A stretch of 64,000 nt of DNA from Amoebophrya sp. A120 (lineage: Eukaryota; Protista; Dinoflagellata): NCBI GenBank assembly GCA_905178155.1, contig CAJINV010000016.1:62001-126000 (forward strand). Direction: 5' to 3'. Position numbers and translations under genes: made by a program. Below the pieces are notes generated by a model that searched no databases, was not told the DNA's origin, and saw only the letters and a list, made by a program, of their open reading frames with translations. This document shows, piece by piece, positions 2,640-63,459 of the stretch. Each line of letters begins with the position of its first letter. Positions within the stretch are counted from its first letter, which is position 1.

Positions 2640-5600
2640 TCACGCAACCTCCTGCGCCAGACGTCTACTTTTTAAAAAAATAGTCGCCGTTATGCATGAC
2701 TTACGCTCCATCACCAACCCTATCGCGTTTTGATGCATCATGGACATGGTTCGTCTTCGTGCGCGTTCGATGATTGCTGTAGTTCTCTCTTTTCTGCGTA
2801 ACGGATCCTCGCGGCACTGTAGGGCGATAACCGTGATGAGAACGAACACCAAGACGGTACTCCCACCGTACGTCAGAATCTCCGGCAGTAAGTCAAGCTC
2901 GGCTTCTTGCGCTGCTTCATCTTGCAGCATGCCCTCCTCTGTTTGGGTTTGGTTGTTGACAGTTTTTTCGCAATATCGTCGCTCGATGTGGTGCATACGA
3001 GAATAAATTGGAAATGTTAAATGACATTTACAAACCGGAACTATATGTTAGTATAATCTTAATCGATCTGCTTCATCTTCACGCATTATCACAGAATGAC
3101 GAGATAAAGTTGTAGAAGAAACAGAAACCAACAGCAAGCTGAGCTTGCTACGTATATAAAATCGTAGAAGTCGGTGCTAAAGTACCCATGCAGCAAGTGT
3201 TATTGTCCGGGTAGTCAACGCACATACTGTTAAGGCAAAACCGCATTACAAATTCAATTCATAATACTAAGCAATGCAATTACTATGCATTATATCCATG
3301 CGAAAAAAGAGGTAGACAGAGGGCCCCAGAGAGGTGGCCGAGAGATAAAAAAGAGGTCGACAGAGGTAGAAAAGAGGTCGACAGAGGTGGAGAGGTGGCG
3401 CGGGACCCCGTTCGAGAGGGTCCGCGAGAGGGTGCGCGAATAAGGCCCGCAGTAAGCGCCCACCCTTAGGCGCCGCCTAAGTGGCACAGAGGGTGCAGAG
3501 AGGTCAAAAAGAGGGGGCGCGAGAGGTCGACAGAGGTGGGGAGAGGTGTTGCGAATAAGGGGCGACCTCTCGCGGACCCTCTTGGCCACCTCTCGGCCAC
3601 CTCTGTCGACCTCTGCCCGCGAGTATAGCCGGATTATTAGCGGGGACCCCCCAAAAGAGGCCAAAAAGAGGTCTGCGAGAGGTCTGCGAGAGGGTGAAAG
3701 CACAAAGAAGCGGGCGCGAATCCGCATGGCACTACCCATATTTGGCACCGCAGGCCATTCGCGGAGCTGTTTTGTTCGGCGCCTTTCCGTGCCACCCTCT
3801 CGCGCCACCCTCTCGCGCCACCCTCTCGCGCCACCCTCTCGCGCACCCTCTCGCGCCACCCTCCCGCGCCACCCTCTCCCGCCATGCGGCTTCTGTTCGC
3901 CCCCGGTGTTCTTTGCAACTGCTCCCTGCGCAGAGCGCCCACAGGCGCGGGAAGCGCGCAAGTGGTCCTGCGGCTTGGCGCGGCGCAAATCGGCGGCAGG
4001 AATCCAGTATGTTTCGTTGTGCCTAGGCCCGTGGGGTTGTGGTCCGAGCGGCAAACAGCCTTGCCCCGGCCCAACAGCCTTGCGCTCCGGCGGCAGCCGG
4101 AGCATGGCTGGTTTGACTAGTACGATACTTTTGCAGTTCATATGCTAGTAGTACCCATGCAGCAAGTGTTATTGTCCGGGTAGTCGACGCACATCCCGCC
4201 CGCAGCGTTGCACTGCACGGTCTCGTCCGTTATGGGCACCATGTTCGGTCCAGAAGTATCGTAGCACCGCAAGACCGTAAAAAAATCCACACACTGTGTC
4301 GTCGCGCGGCAACAGGTGTCCTTGTGCTGCTCCTTGCAGACGTTTCCGTAATACGCCAACGGATCCGCGTCGCACAGGACCGACGAGCTGTTTGCCGCTG
4401 GCACCCACCCGCGCTCGAACAGCGTTTCGCAATACTCCAAGTCGAACAACATGTCGCAGAACTTTTTCGGTACACAGCACGCATCGTAGAAGTTTCCAAC
4501 CGTGGCCGGGTCGCGGGCAGAAAAGTAGACGCCGTCGGTGGTGCTTGTTATGCATTTTCGCACAAATCATGCCTGGATCTGGATTGGTGTGTGATGCGAG
4601 ATGAGTGGAAGTAGGACAACAAGATCTGTGATGCCTGATTTTGATTACGAATGACAGAGAAGTTTTTTGGTCGTGTTGGAAGCCAGTTTGTCACGAGTTT
4701 TGCGAATAATTCTCCAAAATCGACTTGCAAAATTTCTGATGCTCGTATGCCGTACAAGTGGCCACTCTGCGATGCGAGTATGAGGACCACAACGAAGTAG
4801 ACGAGTTTCCAGACCTAGACACATTTGCGATGCGTACTGGTGCTGGCCATGCATTTCTCATCCGATTTGACAGCATACATGGCGGTTTTCTCGGTTTGGC
4901 GGATCGCTTTCGCGTCTGCGTACACTTGTGGCTGGAAGGGAAGGAAGGAATCCGCGTAGCTGCCGCAGGCTGGTTTTTAATGAATTATCATTTGTGAAAG
5001 TGATTACAGTTGAGTGATTACAGTTGTGGTAGCTATTGCAAAATTAGCATGATCACACTTATAAATACGCCTCATGAGAAAACGAATTATGGCGTTCCGC
5101 GGATATTGGTTTTATGGGGTTACGAAGATCTTTTCTGTTAACTCAAAGTTAAGGAATGATTTTCTTGACTTTCCGGATTGATATGCGAAAGCCGAATTTT
5201 TCGGGTGATTGTAATGGAGCGAAAAAAAGAAGAAACGGCTCCAAAAATGCACGGGCTGCTCAGCAAGGCTGTACGGAGCCGCCCCATATCTTCAGCGCGG
5301 AAACATGGCGACGCGACGCGGGTTTGTTGGTTTACAACGCCAGCCCAAGGGCCCAAAGTGGTGACCCATGTTGCCGTGGCGCCGATCGGGGCCGCGGTAG
5401 AAGCGCGTGCCCGCGTCGCACCCGGCCACGAATGCAAACGGGCGAGCCGCCAGTTTACATCCCCGGGCGGAACGCGTCCGCGTGCGGCGCATCTGTGCGC
5501 GCACATAAAAACAAGTGCCCCCATATAAATATGCCACCACGGCAGACTGCGCAATTCCGTGGCAGCCCCGGCGAAGTAAGTGGCCCCACGCTCGGTCGTC

Positions 5601-8600
5601 GGTGTGCACTCAGTTCGTTGCGCGCGCGCCGGGCATTAGACAAGCAAAACGACCCATATTTACCTGCGCGCCGGCGCAAAGGGCGGGGCGACCGATCCGG
5701 CGCTCCAGAGCAAACAAAAGAGCAGGGGGGCCAGCGCTCTGGCAGGTCCCTCTGCCGCCCGCCTGGCAACGGGCGGCGCCCCCACGCCTCCGTCGCCTGC
5801 GGGCCACGGCCGATGGGGCTCAACAATATCAATATTGGGCCCAAGCCCGGGCGCCGGGCCCCTTCCGCCGGCTTTTTGGGCGGGCCCTTCTGAACGAAGG
5901 CCGCCCGCGACTTTTCTGCCGGATGGGCCAGGCAACCACTTTGAAGGAGGACTGCCGCGCCGGCGCACCAACCGCCACGCAACCTGCCGCCCACGATATC
6001 TACCACCAACGCAATGTATGCTTGCAAAGAGAAAGAGCGGCCCCGGGGAGGGGCCTGGGATTGCCCGGGCGAACGTCGTGCCCATGTTATGTTGAGGCAC
6101 CGGCCCACGCCAGAGCCCTCGCTGCCGCTGCCCCGCCCGCCTCCGTCGCTTGCGCGGGCGCGCCGGCCAATTCTATTTTTGAATCGATAGCCTTCCCTCG
6201 GTAGCCTTCCCTTATTTTATTCATGCAGCGAAAGAGGAGGGGGCGGCGTGCCGCCGGTGCGGGCGGACGGTTGGGGGGGCGAAGGCGTTGGTGCCAAGAA
6301 AACGAATTATGGCGTTCCGCGGATGTTGGTTTACTTTTACATGAGAAACTACAAAAAAATAAAAAATCCACTGGTACAAGCGCCAGTGTTTCAAAATAGT
6401 ACTTCCCATGCAGATTCTCCACTGATCCGAGGACTTCTATCCACTCCAAACATGTCTGGATCTGGACAAATGTGAACTTGTGACCACGCGTGGTCCCGTG
6501 GACTCCCCCAAATTTTTAGCATCACTAGTCCCATAAGGTCTTGCCTGCTTATGAATCTGTGGTCGAGTCGCGAGCAGGACGTGTAGTTTATTCATGCCGG
6601 ATAGCAAAACCTCCAAAAGGCATTCGCATTTCATTTCATACGATGCATAGACCTTGTAGAAAAATCAGTGATGCTAGAAAGTCCTGCATGGCAGATCTCA
6701 TGATGAGGCTGCACGGAAAAAATGCATGACAGACTTTTCTATTTCTTCCAGACCCAGACATATGATTTGCACTTCATAACTTCTCTGCCACATCGATTGT
6801 GTCCTCGAAAACTGGACTGCTCCATCTCTCGTTGTATCGCGCCAAAAAGTGTTAGCGTAATAACGGAACTTGGCATGCAGGAATGCACGATGAATGATGC
6901 CCAAATTTGTATTGCATGGCATGCATGATAGCGAAAACTTGTCATGCATGACTGCCATGGCTCAAAAGCCGTTAACTTTAACACTTTTTTGGTTGATACG
7001 TTGAAATGAAACTTCAGAGTATCGTCCGCCGCATCGAGCAGAAGCCCGCAGTCCTGAACGAATTTCCTCTTGTCCGCTTCCGGAACTTCCTGCCACGTCA
7101 TAGCCCCGCCGGTGTGGATTCCCTCGATCAACCCGGTGTCCTTGCGATTCGCATTGGAAAAGAGTTTCGTCAGCGATTCGCACTCCGCGAGATTCGGGGT
7201 GTTGAAGTGCACTGGGCACCCGGAGAAGCCCCGCTCGAGGTTGTAGTAGGGAACGTGGGCGACCCGAAGGTCTGGGCCGTTTCTGGTTCCCGCGATGCCA
7301 GTATAGTCCCACGACTCAAAAGAAGCCGAAGCACGTTGGATATAATCCACGTCCTTTTTCACGTCAAAGCCGCACGCCGTGTCGGGTGTGTCGTCCACGG
7401 TGAGGTCAATGTTCTCGTGGAGGGGAAGGTTCGCGAACCAGAACATTCTTTTCTCTACATTAACGTCGAGATCTATGGATGTGTCAGGATCGAAATCGAC
7501 AAAGTTGAAATGATTTGCCATCCAAGTGGCGCATGACAAGTTTTGGTGATGGCTAAATCCAGTTTGTCATGCTGTTTAGGCCAAGAAAACTGATTTTCTC
7601 ATGCTACTTTAGCAGCCCGAGCTCTAACCCCAAACAGGGTTACAGTCGGCCTCTCTTGCCTGCTCTGCAACGCACGTATTTCGCGTCGTGCGTTTTAGCA
7701 TTACAAGTTATATCAACTTTGTCGATTTCAATTCTGACACCCCCATAAGATCCGGCGGGGCCCCTTTTGATCCCGGGACGGGGTGAATCTGGCAAAGCGC
7801 GTATCAAAAGCAAAAATCCCCCCTCCCCATATCGAAAAGGTATGTTTCCGAAAATTTGCGTTGCTGATTTGAGGCCGCAAATCACATTTGTATTGCAAGA
7901 AGACAAGGGCAGAAACTTCCGCCCCACTATGGATTCGATTTGTCATGCTGTTGGGCCTAAGTAAAGGGGAGCCGCTTGCCATGCTGAACAACTAGACGCA
8001 TACGCCCCTACCTAGCCTGGGGATCTGACTGCAATGCTTTCCTGCAATACAAACCTGATTTGTGTACTCAAATCCAGCATCAGAAATTTCGTTTTGATGT
8101 GGGGGGGCGGGATTTTTCCTTACGATAGCGCGGTGTAGTCTGAAGAGTCGGCAGCTCCCCTGCGATAATTGTTTGACGCTGTAAAAAAAAGTTAGTAAGG
8201 TGTTGGTCGTGCTGTTGCTGACAATTGGTTTTGCTTAACATCAAAAAGAGAAACGCTAAATGGTAAATGCTGTGAAAACGTCAGAAGTCATGCATATCAT
8301 TCGCATTCCACCACTCAACATTTTAGCCTACTAGAAACAACTAAAGAAACGTCGCAGTGCAGCAAACACGAATAAAGAATACTTTCGGGTGATTATGTAG
8401 CTGCAACCCTGCCAGGGCCGTCGGTTGAGGTTGGGCGCGTAGGGAAACTTGGACCAAAGGCATGCACTTCAAAAGTTGTATCGTGCTCGTAGTAATTGCA
8501 GTCATGCATAATTACAAATTTTTTTCTTACGGTAAACTCCCAATCTCAATCTCTTTATAAATTCAATTTCTCATGCCGAGCAAAGAATTTGTGATGCGAC

Positions 8601-11600
8601 TACTACTAGTACGGTTGTACTTTTGCGATGCATAAAAGCAATGAACTGCAAAAGTATCGTACTCGTATAAATGCATTACAAATTTCCTTTAGCATGAGAA
8701 AGAAAATTTGTAATGCGGATTTACCTTAAGAGCAAGATTTGTAATGCATGATTACAATACGAGTACGATACTTTTGCGATGCATAAAAGCTCCTTGCAGG
8801 CGATTTCGCAGTCGTGTCTTTCCTGGTTGAAGAAATGCAGCCGTGTCTATCTATCCTGTGCAAAAGTATCGTACTCGTACTAATCGCAGTCATGCATTAC
8901 AAATTCTGTTCTCAATGTAAATCCGCATTACAAATCTTATTTCTCATGCTGAGGGAATTTGTCATGCATTTATACGAGTACGATGCTTTTGCATTCCATA
9001 CTATCCAGGAAAAAACAATCACCCCCATGCATTTTTGCATGGCAAACACAGGACTTCATGCATGTTTTGTAATGACAAATTGGATGCTGGGGATCGTTTT
9101 TTTTTTCTCGATAGGGTCCACTTTCGTTCGAAGAGGGTATGGGTAGTGTCGCCGTTATCGACTGCTGACAAAATAACGACAACCAGAATTTTCTCGACAG
9201 GGGTTCGATGATTGTTGATTCTTTGTCTTGCAGCTTCGATTGTTCCACAATTTGATGAAGTCGAATTTTTCGCATGATCTTCGAAGAAGCGAGCCTTCTC
9301 AGCAGGTGGCTCCCGCATCATGCTTTGTATCATGTAAGTTGAAGTTCAGAATTTCTTTTTGCGCATGTTGCTTGTGCCTGCACATGCAATTTCCCGTTGT
9401 TGTGCCTGAAAATGCAATTCTGTCGCACTTCCTGTTGAATTAGTTTCCTCTACTACCGCCCCCCGTTTGCTTCAAGACTGGAATGTAGTTGTCAACAGCT
9501 GCTTTTCATACGGCTCAGCTAATCCCACTATCCGACAGAAAAGCACCACACCCATAACATACCATCCTGTTCCGCATGAGATAGTCACAGTCTCCATTAC
9601 ATGACAGGTTTTTAGAACATGATCGCAAAGTTTTTTTGTGCCAGAAAAGGAAAACAGCACCGTAAACAAAATGCATTTTGTTTCATCTGGTATGATGACC
9701 GTGCTTTTCATCTCTGGGATACCCACAGCTAGGAAGGCTTTATCTGACATCCAGTTCAACGCACACCCGCCGGATCCCGGACCGTCAAAAGCAAACGCTG
9801 CGGCTATAGCGGGGAAGTGAGTTGTGATGTGTGACTTTCGGCGGGGCCGCTAGCCCTAAGAAGAGTCGCAAGAACCTGGCATGCGAGTACTAATTCACAG
9901 CGTCCTGGGGGTGTTCTTGTGCTTTGGCATGCAAATAAAGAGAAAGAGAACACCTCGCTCAACTCCACTTACGTGCAGTCTGGAGTCGTGATCTTTGGGA
10001 AGTGTGTCGCATCAACACTAGGAAGGCTGCGTATCGAACTCCGCCCAATGTAGTTGACTTGGAATTTTTCTTGCCACTAGCAGGAGTTCTTGCCCGAAAG
10101 ATGAAGATCAGCCTCTTCTTCCCCTGCATAACGGTGGGAGGTGTTTTTGACGCTACGGTTTGGTCGGGAAAGTAGTCCAGATATGTTTTACATTCGTCCG
10201 GGTCCGTGAACTTTGCAAACCGAATTTATGCCCTGCTCAACTGGAAGAATAGCAAGTGGAGCAGTGATGTAAAACCGAAAGTAAAGCCAGCAAAAGTTGT
10301 CTTGCACAAAGAGCAAAAGTACAGACTGTGTGTTCCTGCTCTACATGGAAAATCTTGTGCAGATAATTTCAATGCAGATTGGCGTCTCGTCAGAGACTTT
10401 TTCCCATGGAGCTGCACGCAATGGTAATATTGATAGCTAGAGTCCCATCTGAGGTGGCCATAGAATGATACCGTCGTCTTTCCCTTGCGGGGTGCCGACC
10501 TGGAGGTGTTCGAATTAAAATTAAAAGAGGATTCCTGTGGTTCTTCATGTTCGTCTATTTCTTGGGGGTCGTTGCGTAATTTTGGCTTATGGGGTGGTCC
10601 TGAGTGACATCGTCCACACTACATCTTGTCAAGATGTAGTAGATCAAGACTTGATCTACCACCTCAACAACGAGTAGTAGCATCTCCTCTATGGAAAGTC
10701 CCATCATAACGATCAAGCAGAGTAATTTGTTCTCTACCGTCAGCCGACACTCGTCCACGTTGAGCCCGGAAAGAATTTTCTCATTATCCGCTCCGACTGC
10801 TTGGCCTGATATCGGATCAACGGCGCTATTATCAACTGTAAAAATGTCTGGGTCTGGGAGAATCCAACTTGTCATGCTGATTTTGGATTCTAAAAAAATC
10901 TGTATTGCATGAGCAGCAAAGAGAGTCCAAGTTGTGCTACACGGAAAGAGCATTTGTCATGCGGTATAGGCATCAGGAAGCCCTCACAAAATCTGTGATG
11001 CTAGGGCATGCATCACAGACATCAGGAGTCACGCAAAATGTGCATGACAAGCCTGGCAATCTTCCAGACCCAGACATTTTTACATTTGATAGCTATGTCC
11101 GATCTTCGTGTTCCCAGTGCTGTCGATCGGGTGGTTTAGATTCCCTATGGGAGTGTCAGAATCGAAATCGACAAAATCGAAAAACTTGTAATGCATAAAA
11201 TGCAGGGCACGCGCGGCCTGTGTTGGGGAGCAGGCAAATGAGACCGATTGCAAGCCTGTTTAGAGGAGGACGATGCGCTCCCAGAGTAGCATGACAGGGT
11301 CAGTCTTCTTTGCCCAAACAGCATGACACACTGAATCTTGGTGCTCCCGAAATTTGTCATGCGCCACCTGAAAGCTGAGGCTTCAACTGGCATCGATTTT
11401 GCGCATCACAAATTTTTCGATTTTGTCGATTTCGATTCTGACACTCCCATATTCCCGCTTTTTGGCGTATGAGAGGGCACAACTAGTTGTACTCCCCCTT
11501 ATTTAATATGGCTACTACAACAGCACTAGAAACTAGACTACACCAACCGCGCAGTGCTGGACATGGAGCTTGCAGTGGCTGTGCATGGCAAGTCCTCTCT

Positions 11601-14600
11601 GCGGAAATCGCAGCACTGTTTTTGGGGTAAATCTAATTCCCGCTTCTGGGATTTGTTATACAAACATCGCCACAGGAGGGAACGAAAGGACAGTGTAGTC
11701 AGGCTTTTGCATTTATTTGCATGACAAGTAAGGTGGAAGTAGAGTCATGCACTTGGTACGGCGTTTGGTATTCCTTGAAGTCGGTGAGAGCCACGACGGA
11801 AGCTGGATTTTGAGAAGTTTTTGGTCAAAGTCTTGTAGCTCCGCCGAAGCATCTTCACAAGTTCAAAAGAAATAAGCCTAGAATGCTAATTCAGAAGAAA
11901 ACATACATATGATAACGCAGCTCAACATCCAGAGGATATCAAATCAACTTGCAACAGAGGGGTAAAAATTGCTTACGTGCCGTTTGCCTCGACTTGGTTC
12001 TGCAAACGGCGACGTTATGGGTTCTTTGGGGAGTTTATCCTATGCAAAGTTTTCTTTACCTCTTTCAGCATCTGCTTCTACTATGATCTTGCACGACAAC
12101 TTCATTGATTTGTGCTGCTGGTTGTAATAGTACTATCTACCATCAGGTATGCAGGCTGTGCGTGCTTATCAACATCAGGTAGAGGATGATGACAAAGCAG
12201 CCGGGTTTTTTATCCTGTATAAAAAAGTCCCCACCCAACAGCTGAGATAAAAATTTTGCTAGTAGTAGTACACAAATCAATTTGCTTCGTCTGTTGCGCA
12301 TGACAAAAAAAGGGTCGCAATGTAAACGTGTTGAGGTACTAGCGCAGCTGCATCACAAATCGATCGCGTTGCGCTAGAAGCATGACAAAACACTACTTCA
12401 TCGAAAATGCTTCTCATGGCCATGAGGAGGCGAAAGCGAATGAAAGCCCTCTGATATTTCGTATTAGGGATCATGCAGAATCACATGAGAAATGTGGGGC
12501 GAGGACGTGTTTACACTGGATATTTTTCTGTGTGTTAGAACCAGGTCCGGAGTAGCGCTACCCACTTTCTTATCCACAGAAGAAAACCTATCCTATCCCC
12601 ATCCATTTTTCGCACGACAGGTTTTGTTGATGCATCATGTTTTGAATTTACAAATTGAATGAGGACGAGGAGCCTTTTTTTGTGGATATTTCTTAGTCGG
12701 TGTCCAGAAAACCGCGACGCGCTCGTCTCCGCTGTTATGCAATGCAAAAGTGTCGGCCATCCTCTCGTGCCTACAACTCAAATTTTGTTCATGATTCTAT
12801 TCGCCGAATTCGAAATGCGGTTTGTGCAGCTAGCCCGATGAGCACACAATAAAGACGGATCTTCTGTCTGACGACCACGAGTGATGTGATGCGTATTTCA
12901 CTTTTACAGTGGATAGCTGCTTTTCGGATGCAGTACTCCACAGCCCTCCGGGTAGAGTTGCTGGTTATTGTTGTTGTGGCAAATACTCCCGTTTTTCACA
13001 CACTTGGTTTCATGCTTCACCTCCGTGAAAGGGGTGTCGTCGGCGGCCACGTAGCAGGCGTCGCTCACTCCCAATTTACACAGGTACGCGATAGCGAGTA
13101 GACACTCGTGCTTGTTGCTGATTGCGTCCTCGGGCGTGCACTTGGCAGCACCCTTCCAGCTATTAGCTACCGCAGCGACTTTCTTCACCTCGTATCCGGA
13201 AGCGAAACAGTAGGGATTCTCGGTCGTCTGACAGAGGTCCCAGGCGGCGGTCTTCGTTTTGGAGGTTTTTTGAAGTGTAGAAGCTGATGTCACGGCCGCG
13301 CCGCGAGCAGTGGATACAGCCGAAGCTGCGTCACTAGATGAAGAGGAGATCATCACTTCGGTTTTTCGGGAAGTGGCTAGTGCTCCTGCTTCATCTTCTT
13401 GCTGGAGAAAGGCGCTGGTTTCCGTTTCGTGCCGTTCGGTGTGCAAGTGGGGAATGTAGTCTAGGTTGACGTCTTGGTCTTCTTTCAGGTTCTTCAAATC
13501 AGAAGTTGTATCAGACTGTTGTCTATCGGAGTCTTGTTTTGATGTACTTTCTTTCTCAGGATCCAACTCCACGTCTTGCTCATCAGCATGACCTGGAGGG
13601 TCTTCTACTTGCGTAGCTGCTTCTTCTCCACTACTGGCACCTGCCGTTCTTGTGTCTACCTCCTGTTCTCCTGCTGACTGCGAAGATGATGTTGCGCTGG
13701 AGGAGTCAGCTTCTATCTTCTCGTTTTTAGCACCACTGCCGCTCGTATTTTGATTTTGGTCCTCCGAAGACTCAGACTCTACTGTCTTTGTGTTTTTAAC
13801 TGTCGACGTTGACTTCGACTTGTCTGTCGCCCTATTGCTCGTATCCTCGCTCTCTTTGGAGAAGGTTCCGGTAGAGCTGCTACTGCCACCAGCTTCTGAC
13901 GTCGACGATGCGGTCGTGCTGCTATCAGGTGGCGCATCAGTTGCTGGAGTTTCTATCTCACCAGGCTCTGGTGCCCTTCCACTTTCGCTTTCCTGGCTCT
14001 TGTCGTTCTTTTGGTCGTTTTGTTCCTCGGTTTGCTTGCTGTTGGTGCCATCTGTTTCCTCAGTTGCTGTTGCACCGCCTACAGGAACAGCACCTGCTTC
14101 TTCTACTGGCCGCGCAGCCGCAGCTTCCTTCTCCGCATTTTCTACATCTTCCTTGTCGCTGGCACGGCCTGCGTGGTCCAATTCGACTGCGGTGTCGGGT
14201 ATTTCATCAGTGCCTGTTGTCGTCCCTTCATCTGGATCTGTCGTGCTCGTGCTGTCCGGTGGAGTTGAACTCGGGCTAACGGGCTCCTCTGCAGAAGTCG
14301 GGGGCTCTATTGTTGTCGTAGTCGCATCTGGTTCGTCATCTCCATCAGGTGTGGTTGTTGCACCTAGACCACTGTGGTTGTCAACATCATCTACCGGAGT
14401 GCGATTTTCACCAGTAGCAGTAGCTGCACCATCTACAGCTGCACTGTGCTCGTCCCCGTCAACAGCCTCATTTTCTTCCAGTTCCGCTCGCAATAACCGA
14501 CTGCCGAAGGTGGAGTCGGCTCTCCCGGCGGCTTCGGCGCTGCCAGATTCAGCATCGAGATCGACCTCGAGCCGAGTCTGGCTTGCGGTTGCCGTTGCCG

Positions 14601-14742: not shown

Positions 14743-15229
14743 CAGGCGGCATGCTGGGTTTGCGAAATGGCACGGGGCTATGATCGGGCAGCTAGTTAAC
14801 ATTGAGTAAGAATCCGAGCCACATTTTGTTTTAGGTAAATAGACATCAACTCATGCGCCACCCTTTTATCTCTCACTCAGGAGTCGTTTCCTGGGCGATA
14901 TTACGCCTTCAGGACCTCCCCGTCTCCCATCGCTCATCGTCAAAACCGGATCCAAGTTCTCTCTTATCCGCGTCCCCCTCAAGATTAGACTGCCAGAGAG
15001 GTTGCAACACCCCTCAACATCATGTCTCAGTTTGGAGTCGCAACAAATCATGGGCCGACGCAATTCGTCGCCGCGTTCTATGACGTGAACAACACCACAG
15101 AGAACTGCGCTGCGCGAGCCTGCAGAGGACGCAACCAACGAACAGTCAACCCACGGACGTAAAGGCGCGCGCATCCATGCTGGACATAGATGGAAAGCAG
15201 AGATCTTCGCCGAGGCAGAAGGGGAATTA

Positions 15230-16898: not shown

Positions 16899-19800
16899 CT
16901 ATCTATTCGTCCACGCCTCTTTCACCACCCGCTGGTGCACCCCTCCAGCTCTCCTATTCGGCGACATCAACCCTCCGCCACCCGGCCCGCTTATCACCTC
17001 CTTCAAGTCCTTCCCGCCCCCGTTCGCCGTGAATTCGCTCGCCTTGCTCGCGTCCCACCCTAGTCTCGGGAGGTTTTTCTGCTCATTCTCGAAAAACTGC
17101 TGGAGGAACTCTTTTTTCAGCAGCTTCGCCTGGTCCGAGGCTTTTTTCACGACGTTCTTCCGGCTGTACGGCTTCTCGAAGGGAAAGGGTTTATCGTCTT
17201 CGTCCTCCTTCGTGTACTGAAAGTGACTGGGCACTTCCACGATGTCAAACGCGCCCCAGGCGGAGTCTTGGGAGGATTTTCTTCTCCGTTCCTTCTCCCG
17301 CCGCTCCTCCTCGACGAACTCCTGGTGGTCTAGTTGCCTCAGTATGCAATACAAATTTCCCGTACATGTACAAAATGCATCACAAATGTCACCAATTTGG
17401 AATGTAAAAACACCTGTCATGCTAAACTAGGACCGGAGCCAAGTCTTGTTGTAATGCAGAGACCACATCATCATTTGTACGTGTATGGGAAATTTCCTGT
17501 AGATATTCAGCTCCGCTCGCTCCCTTTCCTCCGCCGTCCAGGGAATCATCTCGTGCCGGTTGCCGCGAGAGGAGAAGGGGGAAGTTAGGGTTTTTACACT
17601 GGCAAGCTGTTCTTGCTGATTTTGATGTTGCTTGATGTTTCGTGTCGAAATCTGCAATCCGGTTGGTGACATTTGGTTGTTGCTGGTTTGATTCATCAGC
17701 ACCGGTGAAATAGACCGAGAACGAGGATCGCCATGTTGATCCCTTACCGGGGATATACATTGCAAGTATGTAATCTGGGTCTGGAAACAGAAACTTGTAA
17801 TGCTAAAAGTGAATGAGAGTAGTTCCACTGCAAAAATACGGAGCCAAGCATGACAAATTTTTGGGCTCGTCCTATGTGTTGCGTGTCCCGCATGGCAAAC
17901 TGCGTTTATTCCAGACCCAGACATATCTGCAATGCATAGGGGAGCAAGCGATCTTTTTCCTCTCCTCCTGCAGCACCATTTTCTTCGCGCAGTATGCAAT
18001 ACAAATTTCCCGTACATGTACAAGATGCATCACAAATTTCACCAATTTGAAGCGTAAAACTTGTCATGCTAGACTAGGATCGAAGCCCATTTTTGTCATG
18101 CAGAGACCGCATACGTACGTGTACGGGAAATTTACTGTGCCTGTGGATACGCAGTCGATACAGCGAATACCCACGTCTTTCGGCACTACTGGGTACAGGG
18201 GCTGGATTTTTTGTATCAATTTGTTCCTGAGTGACAGCGACTGTCTTTTTTTTGTGTAGCACAGATACGCATCACAAAAAATCCAACATGCCTACTTACG
18301 CATTTACATTTTCGCATGACAAAAGAGGCCAAACAGGCATTGGCATGAACATGATCATACCTTCTTCCCATGCGCTTCGTCCACGCCGTCGTTAGCCAGC
18401 CGTTCCAAATTGACGTTTCGCTGTTGCAAGTAGTAGCACTCCTCATACACTTCCTTCACATCCTCCTTCCACGCCTTGCGCATTCTCGCCTCCAGAAACC
18501 GCAGGCGTTCCCGCCACTTCTCCCGTTCGATCACGAGCCTGACGTTCCGGTGGGTCAAGAACTCCTCGTGCGCCATCCTTCGGGTCTCCGATAACTGCAG
18601 GCACAATTCCGTGTTTTCGTGTTGGAGCTCGGAAAACTGCTCCATGTATGCAATACAAATTTCCCGTACATGTACAAGATGCATCACAAAGTTCAACGAT
18701 TTGGAGCGTAACACTTGTCATGGTAAACTAGGATCGAAGCCCAATTTTGTGATGCAGAGAGTGCATTTGTATGTCGTGTACGGGAAATTTACTGTGGATA
18801 CCATGTACACGTTCCACATTTGCGGGTTCAAGTCGTTATCCTGTGCAAAAGTACCGTAGTCGTATTGCAGTCATGCATTACAAATCTTTTTCTCAAGGTA
18901 AATCAGCATTTCATTTCTCATGTTTAGGAAATTTGTAATGCATTTATACGAGCACGATTCTTTTGCAATTCATAGTCGTCCCGGAACGCCTCTAATTCTC
19001 CGACGTAGAGTTTCAAAAACTTGTTCTCCTGCTGCGCCTCCTGGGTGATTCGTAAATCCCGTATTCTCCCGTTGGTCCGCAGCGCCTCAATCGCCCAGTG
19101 GCGGAAGCACACCTTGTGCAGGTCCGGCCGGGAGCTCGGGTTGATCAGCACGCGGAGCTATCAAATGCAAAAGTGTCTGGGTCTGGGAGATTGCAAGACT
19201 TGTCATGCATATTTTGCATGATCCATAATGCCTGTAATGCATGGCCTACCCCTACTAGCATCACAGATTTTTAGAGGGCTTCCTCATGCCTCTTCCGCAT
19301 GACAAATGCCATCTCCGCGCCGGAGCACAAAGTCTACTCCGCTTACTGGTCACGCACTACAAATTTTTTTCGAATCCAGAGACAGCATCACAAGTTTAGA
19401 ATCTTCCTGACCCAGACATTTTTGCATTTGATAAGAGCCGGTAGAGCGCTTTCTCGCCGAGGGACCGCATCCGCTTCCGCCGTGCGTTTATCGTCTGCAA
19501 AAGTATCGCACACGCACGCGTTTTGCAGTCATGCATTACAAATCTTTTTGTTAAGTCAGATCCGCGTTACAAATTTTATTTCTCACGCTGAGGAAATTTG
19601 TAATGCATTTATACGAGTACGACCACGATACTTTTACACTGCATAGCGTTCGTCACGTTTTTCTCGTCCTGGAGTTGCGAGCGGTATCAAATGTAGAAAT
19701 GTCTGGGTCTGGAAGATTCTGACACTTGTCATGCACGTTTTGCATGAGCCATGATGTCTGTGATGCATACCCTAGCAATACAAATTTTTTGAGGGCTTCT

Positions 19801-47963: not shown

Positions 47964-47991
47964 GGGGCACTACTAACTATAACTTCATTCA

Positions 47992-49763: not shown

Positions 49764-52700
49764 TCATCCCAACTCCATCGCCTCATCCCATGCGTCCGCT
49801 ACCAGATCTTTCATCGTCCCCTCGAAGCAGCTATCCAGCTTCCGCAGCATCAAGTCCGCCTTGACGCTATTGCTCAAGAGCTCCTGGAGCTCGGGGGAGA
49901 TTTTCAACGCGTTTTCTTTAGTGTCCAGCTTATTCGCCCCTCTATTGCTCCCGCCAGTGCCAGATCCCGTGGCAAACCCGCCTCCACTCGTCCCCGACGA
50001 GGTTGTACTAGATGATGTCGTAGGTAGTACAATACCGCTATACACTCGCTGCACTTCCCGCTGCTCCGATTCCGTCACTGTCCGCAAGTTGAACTTCTGC
50101 AGCGTGGGGAGCATGTGCAGAATTTGCATGCGCAACACCGATGCGGACATCGTTTCGTTGATCGGATTGTGAAAAATGGACAAGGACCTATGAACTGCAA
50201 AAGCATCGTACTTGTATAAATGCATCACAAATTTTCTCAGCATGAGAGAGAAAATTTGTCATGCGGATTTACCTTAAGAAAGACAAAGAGATTTGTAAAT
50301 GCAAGACTTGCATTTATTTTTATACGAGTACGATACTTTTGCACAGGATAGGACCGCAAATTCAACGACTTCAGCGGGCGGAGCTGGTCTAGGGACAAAA
50401 TTTGGTTCCTCGAGAAGGACAGCGCGTCCAATTGCCCGAATCTTGTCCGGAGCTTGTCCATACATTTTAAGACCGAGTTGATACTGAGAAAGAGAAATTG
50501 GATACTGGAAACCACCGCCTGGTACTCGTGTTTGTCCATCGCATCCAACCCTCTGCCGTAAATGAACAACTCAAACGCTTCTTCGCGTTTCACGTACCCA
50601 TACCTGGTTTGGGGGTTCTTGCCCTCCCGGGTATGACAGTGCACAACTAGTCCCCGTCTTCCTCATTTGTCTTGCAAAATCCCAAGTCCAGGCGCTGCCT
50701 TCTGGCCCGGTTTGCATGACAAATTCCGGGAGCTCAAACAGTACTACATCAGGCACATAAATATGTCGTGCATATGCTCCACGTGTGCTGATGTTTGTAT
50801 TGCTGTTCATCCCGTACAAATGAGGGGGAACGGGAGTTATGCACTCTCATACCGGGTGGCGTCCAGCCACTGTTGCCGGATGTCGTTCAGCACGTCGTGT
50901 CGGTATGCAAGACAAATTTCCCGCACATCTACAAAATGCATCACAAATTTGTTCACCAGCAACTTGGAGAGTGACATTTCTTGTCATGCTAAACTAGTAT
51001 CGAAGCCCAGTTTTGTCATGCAGCGATCGCATTTGTACGTCGTGGTCGTGTACGAGAAACTTTGCGGTGGGTAATCGCGAGGGGGCTTGTTTTTTGCCCC
51101 GTTTCGTCGTAGAGGTGCCTCCAGTTGCGGGCGTGGAGGGATGTTGATGTGTCGACGTTGCAGGAGTTGTTGCTGACGGTGGGTTCTCGAGAGGAAGCCC
51201 ACCACCACCGACTGTCACAGAACTTGTCGGCACGGCGATTTTATTTTTCGGTAGCTGGTCACTGGACTCCCGGGCGGGGGGTCGGGCGATGTTTTTGGAG
51301 ACTATGTTCGAGGTGGAAACGCCTTCTTTCGTCAACACTTGCCGAGGCCCAGGTTGCGGTGGTGCTGGTGCTGCTCCAGCACTAGAAGAACTTGCTGCAG
51401 CACCCCCTGCAGAAGAAGCAGGAGGACCAGATCCAGGCACACTTCCCGGCGTAGCTTCCGCAGGTTTCTGGTGTTTCTGGATGTGCTTGGATAAGATTTG
51501 ATCCACCATGGTGCCCGGGGTGATGAATTGGCTCTGGTCTGCAGTTGCTCCGACGTGCTGGTCAGCATTCTGAGTTGCTGTAGTGCCCCCGACTACTTGC
51601 ACCCCGGACAGGACCACGGTCGACGGTGGTTTCTGCAGCTGCAAAGCATTCTCCTCCTGCGTTTCAGTCCCTTGGTCACTGCTGGTCCCGCCCGTTTCGT
51701 CGGTCTCTTCCGCCTGGACAGAGGAGGAGTCAACCTCTTCAGCAAGTTGCTGCACTTCAGGCTCGGATAGGTCTATAACCTTGCTGGGCGGTTTTGTCAG
51801 TTTTCCCGATGAATCGACTTCGGGCATCACCGGCTGCACTTTGACCGACGGTGGTTTCATCGCTAACTGCGCAGGAGCAGCGAAAGGTTTATTTGCGGAT
51901 GAAATCGCTGGCTCTATCTCCTGATCGGTCACCGTCGCACTTGCATTCCGTCCCTGTTCCTGGTCGGTGGTAAGAGCTTCTTCAGTGGTTTGCTCTCCGG
52001 CGGTCGCGACGGGCTCTATGGTAGATTTCGACGTGTTCTTCACTTCGTCAAAGACTGATGGTGCTTTCGCTTGTTCATCCGCCCCTGTAAGTGGCGGTGT
52101 GAGAAGGAGATTGGATTGGTCTTTGAGCTTGCTGGACCCAGTTGAGGTTGTGAATAGTGGCTGTTGAAGATTCGTCCCCGCACCACCACCCAGATCACTG
52201 CTGGCCTGCTCTCCTTCTCGCTCTCGTCTACCAGCGCCGCCGCCCTCAGGACTAGTAACACTAGTAGCTGCTTGCTCGGAAACAGTGTTTGTCGCTGCAG
52301 TCGCGAAATCCACTCTTGCGAGAATGTCGCGTGGGTCGATGGTGGAACGCGGGACTTGGTTAGAACTGGACCGGCTAGAGCTGGACGAGGCTGCTGCGCT
52401 GGAGCTGGCTTGCGGGTGGTCGGGAGCAGCGCCGGGGTCGAAAGGTTTCTTTGTTTGATGCTGTTCGGATGGTGCCTGTTGTAAGGGAGCAGTACTAGTA
52501 CAGTTGACAACATGGATACTTGCACAATTGCGTGCCAAGTACAACTTCGCAAACAGACGTTCGAACTTTGAGAAGGTTCTTTCAAATTATTTGAAATCAT
52601 CTGCAAAGTCCTCGTCGCGTCGTGCAAAATCTTCTCTTGTACCTGTTGCTCCCCGGCCACCGCCCCCGTACCACTTCCCAACAAATTTCCGCTGCCGCTT

Positions 52701-56270: not shown

Positions 56271-58656
56271 TTACGAAAAGGTCCACAGGGCGTCCGGATT
56301 TACCCCGCCGTTCCCACCCCCTTCGCTCCGGATGTCGATTGTTTTCCCGCCCGGACTGACGACCACTTCGCCGAATTGCGCCGACTGGATGTTGTCGCTG
56401 TTCGCGACGATGGAGCCCTTCAGCACGTTTTGGTACGACGAGCTCGCTATGCACTGCAAATGTATCGCACGACTCGTAGTAGTGCAATACAAATTAGCTC
56501 AGCATGACAAATGGAATTTGTCATGCTGATTTAGCTTGAAAAAGAAATTTGTAATGCATAAATGCAATTCGTACTACAATACTTTTGCAGTTCATACTCG
56601 CTACGGAGTCCCGGACGATCACGTCGTCGGCGTTCGGATTGATTTCGAAGTTATCAAATGTAAAAATGTCTAGGTCTGGAAGATTCTGAGACTTGTCATG
56701 CATGTTTTGCATGACCCAGGACGTCTGTAATGCACGCCCTAGCATAACAGATTTTGAGAGGGCTTCCTGATGCCTACTCCGCATGACAAACGCCCCCCCG
56801 CGTAGCACAAACTAGAGCCCTGTTGCTGGTCATGCAATACAGTGTTTTTTAGAGTGCGAAGTTAGCATCACAAGTTCCAACCTTCCAGACCCAGACATTT
56901 TTGCATTTGATAAAAGTCGGGGATGCGCGAAATGGACTTCTTGATGAGCGCCGCTTTGGCGGCGTAATTTGTGTTGTGCACCTTCTGCCGTTGCTCCTGC
57001 ATTTGCGTACGAAGCATAGCGGCCTCGAAGGGTTTATGGAGCTGTGCAAATGGTAGTTCTACTTCTACAGGATGGAGGTCGGGAAGAGGAAGGCAAAGAC
57101 TCGATAGATTTGTCATGGTCGGCTAGCATGACTCTCAAGAACTCGTCCGTCACGTATTGGTATTCTGCCGAAAGTAAAGCAATGTCATATTTTGATTTTT
57201 ATGCAGCACCATCATGTGAACTTTTCCGACCAGCGACCACCCCTAGACGAAGATCTATCATGTTTCCACTCGATAGGCCTCAGTGTGACCGCTTGCCCCG
57301 CCAACGTCCTCTTCGGTGTTGTGAGTCACGTACGCGACTTTGGTCACGCGAACGTTCGACGGGACTGATGAATTTGCAGTCGTGGCGTTGCTCTTGCTCG
57401 TAGATTGGTTCTTGCTCGCCCCAGCATTATTCGACGCTGCGTTCTTCTTTCCATTTCTGCTCCGCTGCGTAAAAACCGACACACCAGAAGCATTCTGCTG
57501 CGCCGTGGCGCGCGGATCGTTCCCGTCGAGTGGGGGGATGGAGGGGCGGGACGAGGTGTTTGAGTTCACGGTCGCCGCAGAAGCTCCAGCCAACGACCCC
57601 AGCGCTGCTTTCGCCTCCGCGACCAGTGTGTTCGAAACGTCGGAAACCGGCATGTTGGTGTGGCGCGCGATCGTGGGTTGTCTTGTGTCGAAAGGAGATA
57701 AGAAGTCGGTGTTTCGTTCGCCTTTCTCCTTTCCCGCGATCAGATCTTGTTCGTATTTCGCGTACCCGTCCGTGCGGAGTTGGGTTGTGTTGTTGCCGGT
57801 TTGAGAGGGGTCGGTGTCGAACGAGTGGCCGGTGATCCACTGGGTTGAATACCCGCCGAAGCGGACGGTGGACTGCTTGGCCGGCGGAACGGTCATTTGC
57901 GACTGGTTGTAGAGTGCGTTGATTGTGGAATCATTCCCAAGACCACTCTGTCCGACGAAATCAGGGTTTTGCGATAGCAGTTTGTTGCTCATCAACGCCC
58001 GTTTCGGCTCTAACTTGGAAAGGGCCCAGCAGAAGAACACCATCAGGCCGAAGAAGAGCAGATATCAAATGTAAAAGTGTCTGGGTCTGGAAGAGTCATG
58101 CTGTTTTTGCATGACACAGAAGGTCTGGCATGGAAGCTCTAGCGTCACAGATTTCGAGAAGCTTCCGCAATGCCGAATCCGCATGACAAGTCCCCTACTT
58201 TGCTGACAGAACGTGGGGAGCTTTTGCTACATATGCATGAGAGACTTTTCTGTGTTCTGAAATACGCATTACAAGTTGCATTCTTCCAGACCCAGACACT
58301 TTTGCATTTGATAGCAGGACGCAGAACGCGATCGTGAGCCAGACGTCCAAGCTCCACACGCAGGGCCAGGATTTTTCCGATAGTGCCACATAATTTTCGA
58401 GCGTGCCGGCCGCGGCTTGCTGTTCTTGAGATGTTGTTTCGGTGGTAGAAGTGTGTACTTTGTTCGCGATCTGGAGGAAATTGGTGGAGGACGAGGCCGT
58501 CGAGCGGGACAGGTTTTTCGTGACAAAGTCAAGAAATTCGGTCGCGGCGTTTACGGCGGTGTTGTCGAGGAAAGAGTGGCTGATCGACTGGGCTGCCGGA
58601 AGTGTGGTGCCACCATGGTCGTCCACCTCGACGATGTTGATTGCTTCAATGGACAT
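56271..58656 (-). CDS. Single-pass membrane protein of unknown function
   Basis: Splicing of 58063-58313 builds the hydrophobic stretch VWLTIAFCVLLFFGLMVFFCWAL; further exons 58057-~57290, ~57045-56913, 56651-56597, 56447-56271. Confidence 0.7.
56448..56596. mobile_element. TIR introner, family B
   Basis: TSD CTCGC. Confidence 0.9.
56652..56912. mobile_element. TIR introner, family A
   Basis: TSD GAAGT/AAAGT. Confidence 0.92.
58063..58313. mobile_element. TIR introner, family A
   Basis: TSD GCAGA/GCAGG. Confidence 0.92.
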
Positions 58657-59835: not shown

Positions 59836-62800
59836 CTACTGCCAATTCCCGCGGTACTTGGCCTTGTTTTCCGCAAAGTACGCCACCATTTTTCCCAGAT
59901 CTTGCTCCGAGTCCAGCGTGTGGCTCTGCATCATCGGCAGCAAAAACGAATCCGTCGACTTCTTGTACTTTTCGTAGTAATTTTCGTCGGCAAACAGGGC
60001 CCGGCACTCCGCCGCGAGCACCCCCTCCGCGTTGTTGCGGCGTTCCATCTGCAGCGTATGGAAGCGTCAGGTTTGAACTCGACAAAGTTGAAATAGTTTG
60101 TCATGCATAAAATGCGAGGCATGAAGTGCCTGTCTTGCCGGGATGGCAAGTGAGGCCGACTGTCAGCCCGTTTAGGGTTTGAAATAGAGCTGCTAAAGTA
60201 GCATGACAAAAGAAGTCGCCTGCGCCCAAACAGCATGGTAAATTGGATTCCGGTGCTCGGAAAATTTGTCATGCACCGCATGGAAATTGGGCTTCTAACT
60301 GGCATCGATTTTATGCATTGCAAGTTATTTCAATCATGACGATTTCAATCCTGACACTTCCATACGGTGTGCAGTTAGCGTAGAAATTCGCCAGCACGTC
60401 CTTGTCGGCGCGGGACTGCTTCTGGTAGGTGCTGATCCGTTTCGCCCCGTACACCAGCATGACCACCCGGTCGTTCTCCTTGCTGCCCGTCATGGTGATG
60501 GAGTTGAACACCGTCTGCAGGGCCGGCGGCGCGGCCGAGCCCGCGGGGAAGTCAATCATGTCGTGCTGCATCATCCAGGCGGTGAGCTGCGACAGGTCCC
60601 GCCCGAGCGTCGAAGCCTCCAGCGTTTTGCAATTCGGAAATTGGTCCGCGAAGAGCAACGGCAAACACAAGATCGGGATGCCCCGCGACGTCGCCTCCGT
60701 GACGCCCCCGACCCCGCAGTGGGCGAGAAAGGCCATTTTCAGCTTCCGGTTGTTGTGCTGCAGGGTGTAGTCGGCAAACGCGTCGAAAATGTCCTTTTGC
60801 GGCGCGAAGGGCATCAATTTCACGTTTTCGGGGACCGCAAACCGCGGGTTGCGCTGGAACAGTTGCTCGTAGGTCATGTTGTTCTTCAACTGCGGCTTCA
60901 CGAAGTAAACAAAGACCTTCTTCCGGTTCCCGAAACCGTCGTTCTGGCTCAGATTTTCCCCCAGTTCGCGCAGCAAATACAAGATTCCCTCTTGGGAAAA
61001 TTCAAACCCTTGGGACCCGAAGGAAACGTAGACGAAGTGCGTGTAGCGGTTATCCTGAGTAAAAACGTACCCACACCAGAGTCAAGCTGGGAAATCTGCT
61101 AGACAAATCCGTCAGCTTTTGCTGTTGCGCATGACAAGTTTGGCCTCGCAGTGTAATCCTGTTTAGCTTGTTCAGAAGCATCACAGTTCTAGCATATCAT
61201 GCTGATTCTAGCATCACAAATCCCACAACACGACTAGAGACTGCTTCTCATGGGTCTCCGCATGAGAAACATTTTCAGCATGCAGATTTGCATTACAACT
61301 CTGGGGTGGGGACGTTTTTACAAATGATAGCGGTTCTGCTCAAGTTCTTGTTTGATCATCGAAATTTCCGGCAGTTCCGTCTTCTTCTCGAACCCCGGCC
61401 CCACCTTCGGAAAGTGCGCTAAGTGGCCCATGACCACCGCTATGGGCGCGAGCTCTCTTCCGGTGAAATTGTTCGTCACTTTGAAGGCGTTGAGGGGTTC
61501 GTTTTGAAAAATCACGTCCTTCTTCACGCAGTAATACCCGCTCTTCTCCTCGGTCGGCGCGAAATAGTGGAGTAACGGGATGACGTTCTGCACAATCAGC
61601 GGGATTTTCGAGAAGTTGTAGCCTATCAAACGTAAAAGTGTCTGGGTCTGGAAGATTCTGAGACTTGTCATGCATGTTTTGCATTGGCCATGACGTCTGT
61701 GATGCATGCCCTAGCATCACAGATTTTTTGAGGGCTTCGCGATGCCTATTCCTAATGACAAATGCCCTCTCCGTGTAGCAAAAATTGCATTCCCTTTGCT
61801 GCTCATGCAATCCAGATTTTTTTGGGATCCAAATTCAGCATGACAAGTTGCATTCTTTCAGGCCCAGACATTTTTACATTTGATATAGCCGCATTTTTTC
61901 CAATTCTCGACAACATCCGTCCGTCCCTCCGGGTGGATTTTTGCCGAAGACAGATTCCCCGCGTACATCACCATGGCCGAGTCTTCGAAGCTGGCGTGCG
62001 TCAGCAGGCGCCGGAAGTCAAACAGCCCCTCGCAGTAGAGCGAGTCGGCGACGATCAAGTCGCAGTCCTGGCCCTGGAAAAGAAACTCCGCGATCCAGTG
62101 GCCGAAGGCCTCCTCCCCGTAAATGTTGTCGAAACTCAGCCGCCGCTCCGCCAGCTTTTCCAGGATGTCTTGTTTCGCCTCGTGGCCCACGGGAATTGCT
62201 TCGGAGTTGATGAACCGCTTCGGCGCAAGCCGCACGCCCGCCTGGTACAGCTTCTTCAGCACGCTCTTCGGCGGCGTGAAGTCCAGGGCCCGGTAGTCGA
62301 GTTGCTCGTCGAGTATGGAGTTCTCAAATGTTACATTCTCAACTGTTGCATGAATTTGCAATGCATGAACGGCAAAAGCGAAAGGGGGACAATTGCGCCT
62401 CTAGCATTACAAAATCCGCACAGATTTAAACGCTGTTTAGCCCTCCAGGAATTTGTCATGCGAAGTCGCTTCACCCGACCCTGTGGATGTTGATGTTGAT
62501 TTTGCATGACAAATCGTGTGAGCAGTTGAGAATGTAACAGTTGAGAACGCCATATCGAACGCCAGGTCCTTGTGCCCCAGCGGGACCTGCAGCTTGGAGC
62601 AGAAGGGGCTAGTTGCGTTCAAGGTGGAAAATTTCATGCGGTCGTTGAAGGTCAATGCGTCCACGTCTTCGGCAACGTAGAGGTTCTTGCCGCCAGTGTG
62701 GTCCTCCCGAAGCACGAGTGTGCAGTAGTTGAAAGCGAAGGTTTATCCTGTGCAAAAGCAACATCTTCGCGGAGGTCGTAGTACAAATAAATTGCAATGA

Positions 62801-63459
62801 TCCTGCAACAAGACAGATGTCTCTCGTATTAAAGGGAAATCAGTATCGTAGACGCCAGCGCCACTTTTCAGATTAGGAATAACAATAAAAACATTTTTCT
62901 GTATGCAGTCGTTTCTATGTACTTACTACGAAGATAGCTGCGATGCTTCAACTTTTGCAATGCGTAAAACCACCTCGTACAGCAGGTACCCGTCCCGGTT
63001 CTTCTGGTTGGCCAGGTAAATCATCGCGTCGTATCAAATGCAAAAGTGTCTGGGTCTGGAATATTGCCGGGTTTGTCATGCATATTTTGCATGACCCAGG
63101 ATGTCTGCAATGCACGACCCAGCATCACAGATTTTTAGAGGGCCTTCTGCTGCCTACTCCGCATGACAAATGCCCTCCCCGCGTAGCACAAAATGACCTC
63201 CTCTTGCTGGTCATGCAATGCAGATTTTTCTAGAGTCTAAAGTTAGCGTCACAAGTTGCAACCTTCCAGACCCAGACATTTTTGTAGTTGATACGTCGTA
63301 AGCCTGAGACATCTCCGTCTTGGACGTGCTGAGAAACAGAATCCGGGTCGGTTCGATTTTTCGACTGTCCTTCCGGTCCGCCACATGAAAGGGCAGGGCG
63401 GCAAGGTCGTAGAAATCTGCGTCGGTGACGGTGGTCGGAGAATCGATGTGAGGGCCGTG
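59836..63459 (-). CDS. UDP-glycosyltransferase (GT1 family); 5' exon(s) unresolved, possibly up to ~63870
   Basis: TRILFLS..YEV(T/V)FAF, CDLIVADS, FVYVSFGS, NVKLMPFAPQKDIF..AFLAHCGVGGVTEATSRGIPILCLPLLFADQFPN (UGT signature). Confidence 0.88.
60057..60364. mobile_element. TIR introner, family C
   Basis: TSD CAGCG/CGGTG. Confidence 0.9.
61051..61329. mobile_element. TIR introner, family D
   Basis: Homologous to 38981-39259, same 279-bp length; TSD GCGGT. Confidence 0.93.
61624..61885. mobile_element. TIR introner, family A
   Basis: TSD TAGCC. Confidence 0.92.
62314..62554. mobile_element. TIR introner, family H
   Basis: TATGGAGTTCTCAAATGTTACATTCTCAACTG inverted, TSD TCGAG/TCGAA. Confidence 0.9.
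62744..62966. mobile_element. Decayed family-B introner, TSD lost
   Basis: TATCCTGTGCAAAAG / CTTTTGCAATGCGTA; removal of the element plus 5 nt still restores the frame. Confidence 0.7.
63032..63293. mobile_element. TIR introner, family A
   Basis: TSD CGTCG. Confidence 0.93.

Follow-up and report, generated by a model that had tools for sequence, protein, structure and literature searches.

How can dozens of insertions whose ends do not conform to GT-AG be removed exactly from the coding sequences that they interrupt? The question is raised by a 64,000-nucleotide (nt) stretch of the Amoebophrya sp. A120 genome (contig CAJINV010000016.1, positions 62,001 to 126,000; here, the window), in which short elements with terminal inverted repeats (TIRs), flanked by 5-bp target site duplications (TSDs), recur, many of them within genes. 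Our reading, to which we assign a probability of roughly 60%, is that these are TIR-transposon introners that are cut from RNA as the element plus 5 nt, likely in one fixed register and likely by a relaxed U2-type spliceosome. The elements themselves are the published A120 introners of Farhat et al. (2021), and the system is already known; the interest lies in the rule. Window coding exons of P0001, P0002 and P0004 are 100% identical to database proteins named Amoebophrya sp. A120, and the elements show the features described for A120 introners: a TAT-led inverted repeat followed by As, a direct repeat of 3-5 nt, membership in repeated families, absence from transcripts and mostly non-GT-AG ends.

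The text of that report (PMC7789003) gives RNA-seq support for non-canonical introns, put at more than 60%, and for A120 counts 1,954 introner families with 29,850 copies in all. The inverted repeats are described as starting with TAT, followed by a less conserved stretch and then three or more conserved As, with direct repeats of 3-5 nt at the exon-intron border (5 bp in the legend of Fig. S19). A hairpin has been reported as well (PMC7789003; PMC12130899). Farhat et al. saw 'no clear splicing signature', detected 83 of 89 spliceosomal proteins and did not find U1 small nuclear RNA (snRNA), snRNP27 (undetected per Table S6) or a transposase; in Table S4, the nine commonest non-canonical intron classes of A120 all begin N-T, and those of A25 are TT-NN. 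In the dataset of Gozashti et al. (2025, PMC12130899; 32 of the 58 A120 rows), most A120 families are TIR DNA elements of unassigned superfamily, and automated TSD calls range from 2 to 6 nt. Whereas the introners as published have variable repeat lengths and no splice signature, the window elements have a uniform 5-bp duplication and are fitted by a single register. Within the literature searched, which covered the figures of PMC7789003 by their legends, neither the uniform 5-bp duplication and 1+4 register (one base before TAT, four after ATA) nor a branch point for Amoebophrya was found. An earlier note on this DNA, made from the sequence alone, rightly said that TIR-type introners and non-canonical introns had been reported, but it understated the prior art, as PMC7789003 already gives inverted repeats of TAT plus As and 5-bp repeats.

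The elements were delimited by two scans. The strict one returned 35 elements with a TIR match of at least 13/20, and none in any of 20 shuffles; the relaxed one, which tolerated at most one deviation across TAT, ATA and the 5-bp duplication and added a TIR score, returned 41 elements in the window and none in any of five order-3 Markov shuffles. With degenerate copies added by hand and by BLAST, the full inventory came to 55 elements of 118-341 nt between positions 4549 and 63730. Both TAT and ATA were present in 50 of them, the fourth base was C or G at 108 of 110 ends, and the duplication was perfect in 38, with one mismatch in 12, two in three, three in one and four in one. The claim of the earlier note that about 50 elements share a 5-bp TSD and TAT...ATA ends is thus borne out, as is its observation that removing the element with one copy rebuilds conserved motifs (SBNO 'KAI/QQFGRIHR' and BPNT 'VAGAGNK'). 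When element plus 5 nt was removed, an open frame of 150 nt or more flanked the junction on either side in 36 of 48 cases; other removal lengths achieved this in 15-19. Short, non-coding and multi-copy, with TIRs and TSDs, the elements have the anatomy of miniature inverted-repeat transposable elements (MITEs). The same duplication length recurred outside the window: a TSD-blind scan of 146 loci (320 kb) from another assembly in a metagenome collection, picked by the TIR of one family and biased to that family, found 250 TAT..ATA TIR elements, of which 200 had an exact abutting repeat of 5 bp, one of 4 bp and none of 6 bp. The GT (GC)...AG ends of U2-type introns are not a property of the elements. 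A GT..AG-compatible register exists in three of the 55 (24568, 35793 and 50189), close to a rough chance estimate of 2; it always keeps one base of the upstream duplicate and never four. The statement that no register within the TSD gives GT..AG, made for the junctions that the earlier note examined, therefore holds for most elements and fails for these three.

We then asked at which level the elements are removed. Runs X1-X4 carry an RNA label that is a guess; they behave like RNA in that they cover genes, leave intergenic bins mostly near-empty and lack ordinary introns. On the question of whether transcripts keep the elements, element plus 5 nt was absent from these RNA-like contigs at all 26 resolvable sites. 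Explicit joints equalled element length plus 5 at 11 of 11 sites, and the other 15 removals rest on length arithmetic. Contig 1 of run X1 (14,252 nt), for example, skips 313, 1274, 546, 502 and 992 nt; the first four skips equal the summed element-plus-5 lengths exactly, and the fifth is accounted for by four elements together with a GT-AG intron of 144 nt. A further 13 elements are removed in annotated proteins, so that the claim that the elements are introns is supported for 39 of 55; among the other 16, removal fails at nine to restore an open frame of 150 nt on each side. The DNA-like run X5, by contrast, covers exons and intergenic bins evenly at about 27-36x, and in six of its eight listed contigs the sequence passes from exon into a TAT element. 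Because the RNA-like runs lack the elements while X5 retains them, removal happens at the RNA level, although contigs could miss rare DNA excision; precise DNA excision, which had been proposed as an equal option, loses that standing. Within a family, copies of either orientation are removed, as confirmed in RNA for the ~262-nt family (two and six elements) and the ~150-nt family (two and four).

Two further observations concern transcription. The 14,252-nt RNA-like contig spans the SBNO-like region and continues leftwards (window ~24000-43402), suggesting a very long transcript. The raw-read RNA runs X8 and X9 showed no exon coverage of window genes and only element-like partial reads; among these, the left part of the element family found at 37079-37160 stands next to another flanking sequence (220 reads in X8), in another strain or locus, and is an element retained in a transcript elsewhere.

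The exact cut can be placed only where the two copies of a duplication differ. Let k denote how many bases of the upstream duplicate are retained; all the informative genes lie on the minus strand. Among RNA joints, 56652..56912 (~262-nt family, unequal TSD, joint 56647-56914) allows k<=4, 60057..60364 (~306-nt family, two TSD mismatches, joint 60051-60365) k=4-5, and 62744..62966 (a decayed element with four of five TSD bases mismatched and a transcript 5' end of TAC, removed as length plus 5; joint 62737-62966) k>=4. The singleton 57035..57275 (two TSD mismatches, joint 57028-57275) requires k>=3, and 58063..58313 (~262-nt family) and the singleton 62314..62554 each require k>=1. The end of an RNA contig piece at 38479 gives k>=3 for 38485..38697 (singleton, unequal TSD). 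Annotated proteins give k<=4 for 17343..17505 (~157-nt family, unequal TSD, P0002), 19159..19433 (~262-nt family, unequal TSD, P0002, at the same residue in the relative P0003) and 50904..51073 (related to the ~157-nt family, transcript 5' end TAC, P0004), and k=3-5 for 63461..63730 (three of five TSD bases mismatched, P0001), which at k=4 is a GT..AC intron. Only k=4 satisfies all 11 informative sites, and it defines the intron as N+TAT(C/G)...(C/G)ATA+NNNN. One fixed register, with one base before TAT and four after ATA, is therefore likely; it is the simplest reading and is not proven for each intron. Removal is exact even where the duplication has decayed, at 62744 (4/5 mismatches) and at 57035 and 60057 (2/5 each). 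The duplication was consequently rejected as a guide for removal and is an insertion by-product rather than a signal. The proposal that the element leaves with one copy thus stands, since joints equal length plus 5, with the amendment that the duplication itself is dispensable. The accompanying proposal, that geometry rather than sequence is recognised, fits less well: the duplication is not needed, and the ends share motifs and a fixed, polar register. An apparent avoidance of mismatches in the middle of the duplication, which would have pointed to a variable register with both copies constrained, faded in the oriented outside elements, where positions 1-5 carried 7, 6, 2, 5 and 4 mismatches. 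Duplicates mismatched at 4.1% of sites, compared with a median identity of 87% between nearest neighbours.

What reads these ends was approached through the ordinary introns of the window. Eight GT-AG introns could be delimited (two by RNA, five by annotated protein alone and one by open reading frame (ORF) only). All eight start with GTA and thus share +2T and +3A with the elements; their +4 base is T in three, C in three and A in two. In seven of the eight an A stands at -7, the same place as the first A of ATA (p=0.004 at an A frequency of 0.35, post hoc). Judged from sequence, the N-TAT(C/G) of the elements may correspond to a donor at +2 to +5, and their A at -7 to a branch A near the 3' end. 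Two introns link the canonical and element classes: 54280-54459 (minus strand; RNA joint in X4, P0004), an ordinary GT-AG intron whose ends are arranged as in the elements, G+TAT...ATA+TCAG, and the intron at 63461, G+TAT...ATA+GCAC. A non-TAT skip of 720 nt likewise has +2T and ends in ATA plus 4 nt. Among firmly oriented end variants, +4 was changed five times and its mirror, -7, never (two-sided p=0.06), and the variants thus lean polar. Loss of SNRNP27K has been reported to go with +4U (PMC10581693). A GT-AG intron lies at 52478-52644.

These features suggest a mechanism in which the TAT(C/G) of the TIR would supply +2 to +5 of the donor and leave +1 unconstrained, and the first A of the terminal ATA, at -7, would be the branch point. 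The 3' cut would be set by its distance from the branch A, making AG unneeded, and the inner TIR stem might join the ends, perhaps in place of the U1 snRNA, which was not found. Because both TIRs begin with TAT and the 1+4 cut removes exactly one duplicate, either orientation would provide a donor and a branch A, and any insertion would be silent. We regard it as an even bet that the A120 spliceosome needs neither G+1 nor AG and reads only a (N)UAY donor and, precisely 7 nt from the 3' end, a branch A, that one TAT(C/G)-TIR transposon class with 5-bp duplications supplies both in either orientation, and that some 30,000 insertions are in this way erased scarlessly, whatever the sequence they hit.

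A number of points weigh against this reading. The RNA evidence consists of assembled contigs from two samples of one study with a guessed RNA label, and the annotated proteins may go back to related data. In genes that are covered by contigs only, neither a lariat nor a branch point nor an intermediate was seen. As for the register, k>=4 is forced by only two sites and k<=4 by one RNA site, and six of the 11 sites also allow k=1, the register of all three GT-AG-compatible elements, so that a mixture is possible. In 24 of 26 elements, folding predicts closed terminal TAT/ATA pairs (two or more of the three pairs above 0.8), which would hide both donor and branch A. At k=4, neither G+1 nor AG is favoured (28 and 9, with 2 GT-AG, among 85 oriented outside elements). 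The polarity count is small, and three more +4/-7 variants are ambiguous in orientation, one of which would be a -7 change; a T-to-C change at +2, giving GC, occurs once. The GT-AG intron at 41201 lacks an A at -7, and that at 18202-18360 has TAT/TGATA-like ends, starting with GTATG and carrying a TTGATA, yet its AG lies 11 nt beyond the ATA; it may be a former introner, now decayed, that has gained a canonical acceptor. The -7 position is closer to the 3' end than the -8 of Giardia, and the N-T classes of PMC7789003 Table S4 depend on aligner choice.

The best surviving alternative, though in our view an unlikely one, is spliceosome-independent removal from RNA, in which a nuclease and ligase would recognise the TIR hairpin with its 1-nt 5' and 4-nt 3' overhangs, as proposed for euglenids. 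The strong folding (24 of 26 elements have z below -3) and the predicted closure of the terminal pairs would suit such an enzyme, as would removal in either orientation, the freedom of +1, -1 and -2, the failure to find U1 snRNA in A120 (PMC7789003) and the precedent of euglenid nonconventional introns (PMC11282704). However, 57035 (z 0.9) and 62744 (z -1.0) fold no better than shuffles and yet are removed exactly. Ordinary GT-AG introns share +2T/+3A and mostly the A at -7, intermediate forms exist at 63461 and 54280, the end variants lean polar, and most spliceosomal proteins were found in A120 (83/89, PMC7789003). No back-joint of a full-length circle was present among the joints listed, and contigs drop rare forms. 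More doubtful still is a spliceosome whose register varies per intron within the duplication, for example k=1, giving AG or AC ends, at some introns and k=4 elsewhere. The six sites that also allow k=1 and the three elements that are GT-AG only at k=1 would agree with this, and annotated A120 families have about 26% AG and 20% AC 3' ends (PMC12130899 dataset, 32 of 58 A120 rows). Yet k=4 is contradicted by no informative site while k=1 is excluded at five, and the AG and AC shares are close to what base composition at k=1 alone gives (28 and 26 of 85) and may reflect aligner choice. Precise DNA excision, programmed or transposase-driven, that restores genes before transcription is highly improbable: it would accord with the transposon anatomy, and rare empty sites may exist because contigs drop rare variants, but X5 keeps exon-element junctions, removal is exact without duplicate homology, no transposase is reported in A120 (PMC7789003) and the same RNA-like contigs also lack ordinary GT-AG introns.

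If the 1+4 register of the favoured, relaxed-spliceosome reading holds genome-wide, one consensus would replace the apparently signal-free splice sites in ~65% of A120 introns, and the reported diversity with 'no signature' would collapse into a single rule. Host splicing and transposon ends would match, so that insertions into any coding sequence would be harmless. The rule would also name -7 as the base to examine for a lariat and allow correct gene annotation, and it makes the mechanism of intron removal in Amoebophrya directly testable with existing RNA-seq.

Partial parallels exist in other intron systems, in the sources as far as they describe them. The MITE-derived introns of Fritillaria borealis (PMC11282704; PMC13326754) likewise have TIRs and TSDs, are mostly non-GT-AG and use a U2-type spliceosome; however, they prefer AG-AC and AG-AT ends, with U1 kept and U2AF duplicated, whereas +1, -2 and -1 seem unconstrained in the A120 elements, and no U1 was detected. 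Euglenid introns (PMC11282704) likewise combine a TIR hairpin that joins the ends, TSD-like repeats and non-canonical junctions, but their stems start at +4..6/-8..-6 (CAG/CTG) and they are released as circles, while the A120 element stem starts at +2/-5. Giardia and Trichomonas introns (PMC6679479) resemble the elements in their VTATGTT donor with relaxed +1, invariant branch-to-3' distance and fused branch point and 3' site; unlike the elements, they keep CAG and a CTRAC branch motif, are few and are not transposon-derived.

With regard to origin, clustering of 54 elements at 65% identity gave six multi-copy families and 14 singletons. The earlier note had counted some 11 dissimilar families, but these are not truly dissimilar: pooled ends share TAT[CG]NNN-T-G-Y-AAAA (72-87% of 108 ends have A at positions 11-14), and 48 of the 54 window elements, like 122 of the 126 outside elements that were oriented, carry the internal motif GCAT[GCT]ACAR. 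This motif was considered as a branch site and set aside, as it is found in both orientations at mirror positions; it looks more like transposase-binding repeats. A TIR/MITE-type origin is supported, and the common termini and subterminal motifs, together with the uniform 5-bp duplication, suggest that one transposase class, as had been proposed, would lie behind the elements. The search for a transposase or autonomous copy, which covered the window and, apart from ORFs of the 456-971-nt pairs, the unpaired or long-paired ends within the 320 kb of outside loci, found none. An integrase-like DDE transposase of the IS3EU/GingerRoot neighbourhood is a lead only. IS3EU/GingerRoot and IS481EU, as described in PMC10045372, belong to an integrase-like DDE class and have TA..TA or TNT..AYA termini and short TIRs, and the elements share the TA..TA termini of IS3EU/GingerRoot. 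The TSD is usually 6 bp in IS3EU/GingerRoot and ~4, 15 or 25 bp in IS481EU (PMC10045372), but 5 bp in the elements; because a 6-bp TSD occurs in none of the 250 outside elements and a 5-bp one in 200, they do not fall within IS3EU/GingerRoot. The outside assembly shares the same element families, with ~420 stretches estimated for one TIR pattern, and its loci include end pairs 456-971 nt apart with exact 5-bp duplicates; none of the 146 loci was orthologous to window genes. The exact TIR pattern had no match in viral contigs, and Rfam had none in the window.

The remaining elements can be grouped by the evidence for their removal. Explicit RNA joints, all on the minus strand, were found for 46441..46705 (~262-nt family), which splits the BPNT motif AGAGNK and whose joint 46435-46706 recurs in four runs, 56448..56596 (~150-nt family), 61051..61329 (279-nt family), and 61624..61885 and 63032..63293 (both ~262-nt family). 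Length arithmetic on RNA contigs accounts for another minus-strand series. In the ~150-nt family it comprises 32686..32836, in the SBNO-containing transcript, 33378..33529, 35793..35957 (GT-AG possible at k=1), 40609..40763 and 40926..41082 (one TSD mismatch). The ~306-nt family contributes 34271..34584, 35440..35746 and 37079..37383, the last of which splits SBNO KAIQQFGR, rebuilt on removal; the ~262-nt family 34857..35118 (in the orientation opposite to 46441), 40305..40556 and 41597..41860; the ~220-nt family 35173..35373 (one TSD mismatch) and 36580..36810; and the 279-nt family 38981..39259. Annotated protein P0002 lacks the minus-strand singleton 17754..17938, its intron being the element length plus 5, together with 17993..18149 and 18647..18800 (~157-nt family), 18837..18974, 19489..19645 and 20586..20749 (~150-nt family) and 19685..19952 (~262-nt family), and P0004 lacks 50189..50350 (~150-nt family, GT-AG possible at k=1) and 50632..50851 (~220-nt family), also on the minus strand.

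Elements known from the scans or the inventory include four on the minus strand: the singletons 6438..6778 (strict scan, frame restored) and 6835..6998 (relaxed scan), 24568..24836 (~262-nt family, relaxed scan and inventory; one TSD mismatch, GT-AG possible at k=1) and 24892..25044 (~150-nt family, relaxed scan); the contigs showed an RNA joint for neither of the last two. The others have no assigned strand. The relaxed scan found 7474..7747 and 11146..11451 (~306-nt family), 8852..9000 (~150-nt family), 10830..11091 (~262-nt family) and the singletons 7802..8127, 12211..12522 and 12571..12688; the strict scan found the singleton 9529..9721. Two singletons with one TSD mismatch come from the inventory, 4549..4836, whose plus-strand right end is GTA, and 12736..12915. 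A tandem pair of ~150-nt-family elements, 8461..8634 (inventory) and 8640..8785 (relaxed scan), shares its middle 5-bp duplicate, and both left ends are altered, to CAT and AAT, respectively.

Other classes of insert are present in the window. Three GC-rich inserts of 0.9-1.2 kb lie between direct repeats of 36-49 nt (3181-3225/4150-4194, 5077-5112/6297-6332 and 30383-30431/31623-31671) and gave no BLAST match to one another. They are a different element class with unusually long duplications. The third is a 1191-nt insert with loose CACC..GGTG ends within a coding region, and its length is that of the A120 family fam103, listed with a 16-nt TIR (PMC12130899). GC-rich intergenic stretches at 14900-16500 and 22000-23600 resemble these inserts in composition, again with no BLAST match among them. 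Finally, a 686-nt element at 47992-48677, just upstream of the BPNT-like gene, has 163-nt TIRs (GAG..CTC ends) and a 7-nt duplication, and may correspond to the 730-nt family fam26 of PMC12130899; run X1 skips 47974-48693 (AT..TA, ending in ATA plus 4 nt), and the skip in X3 and X4 is shorter, at 677 nt.

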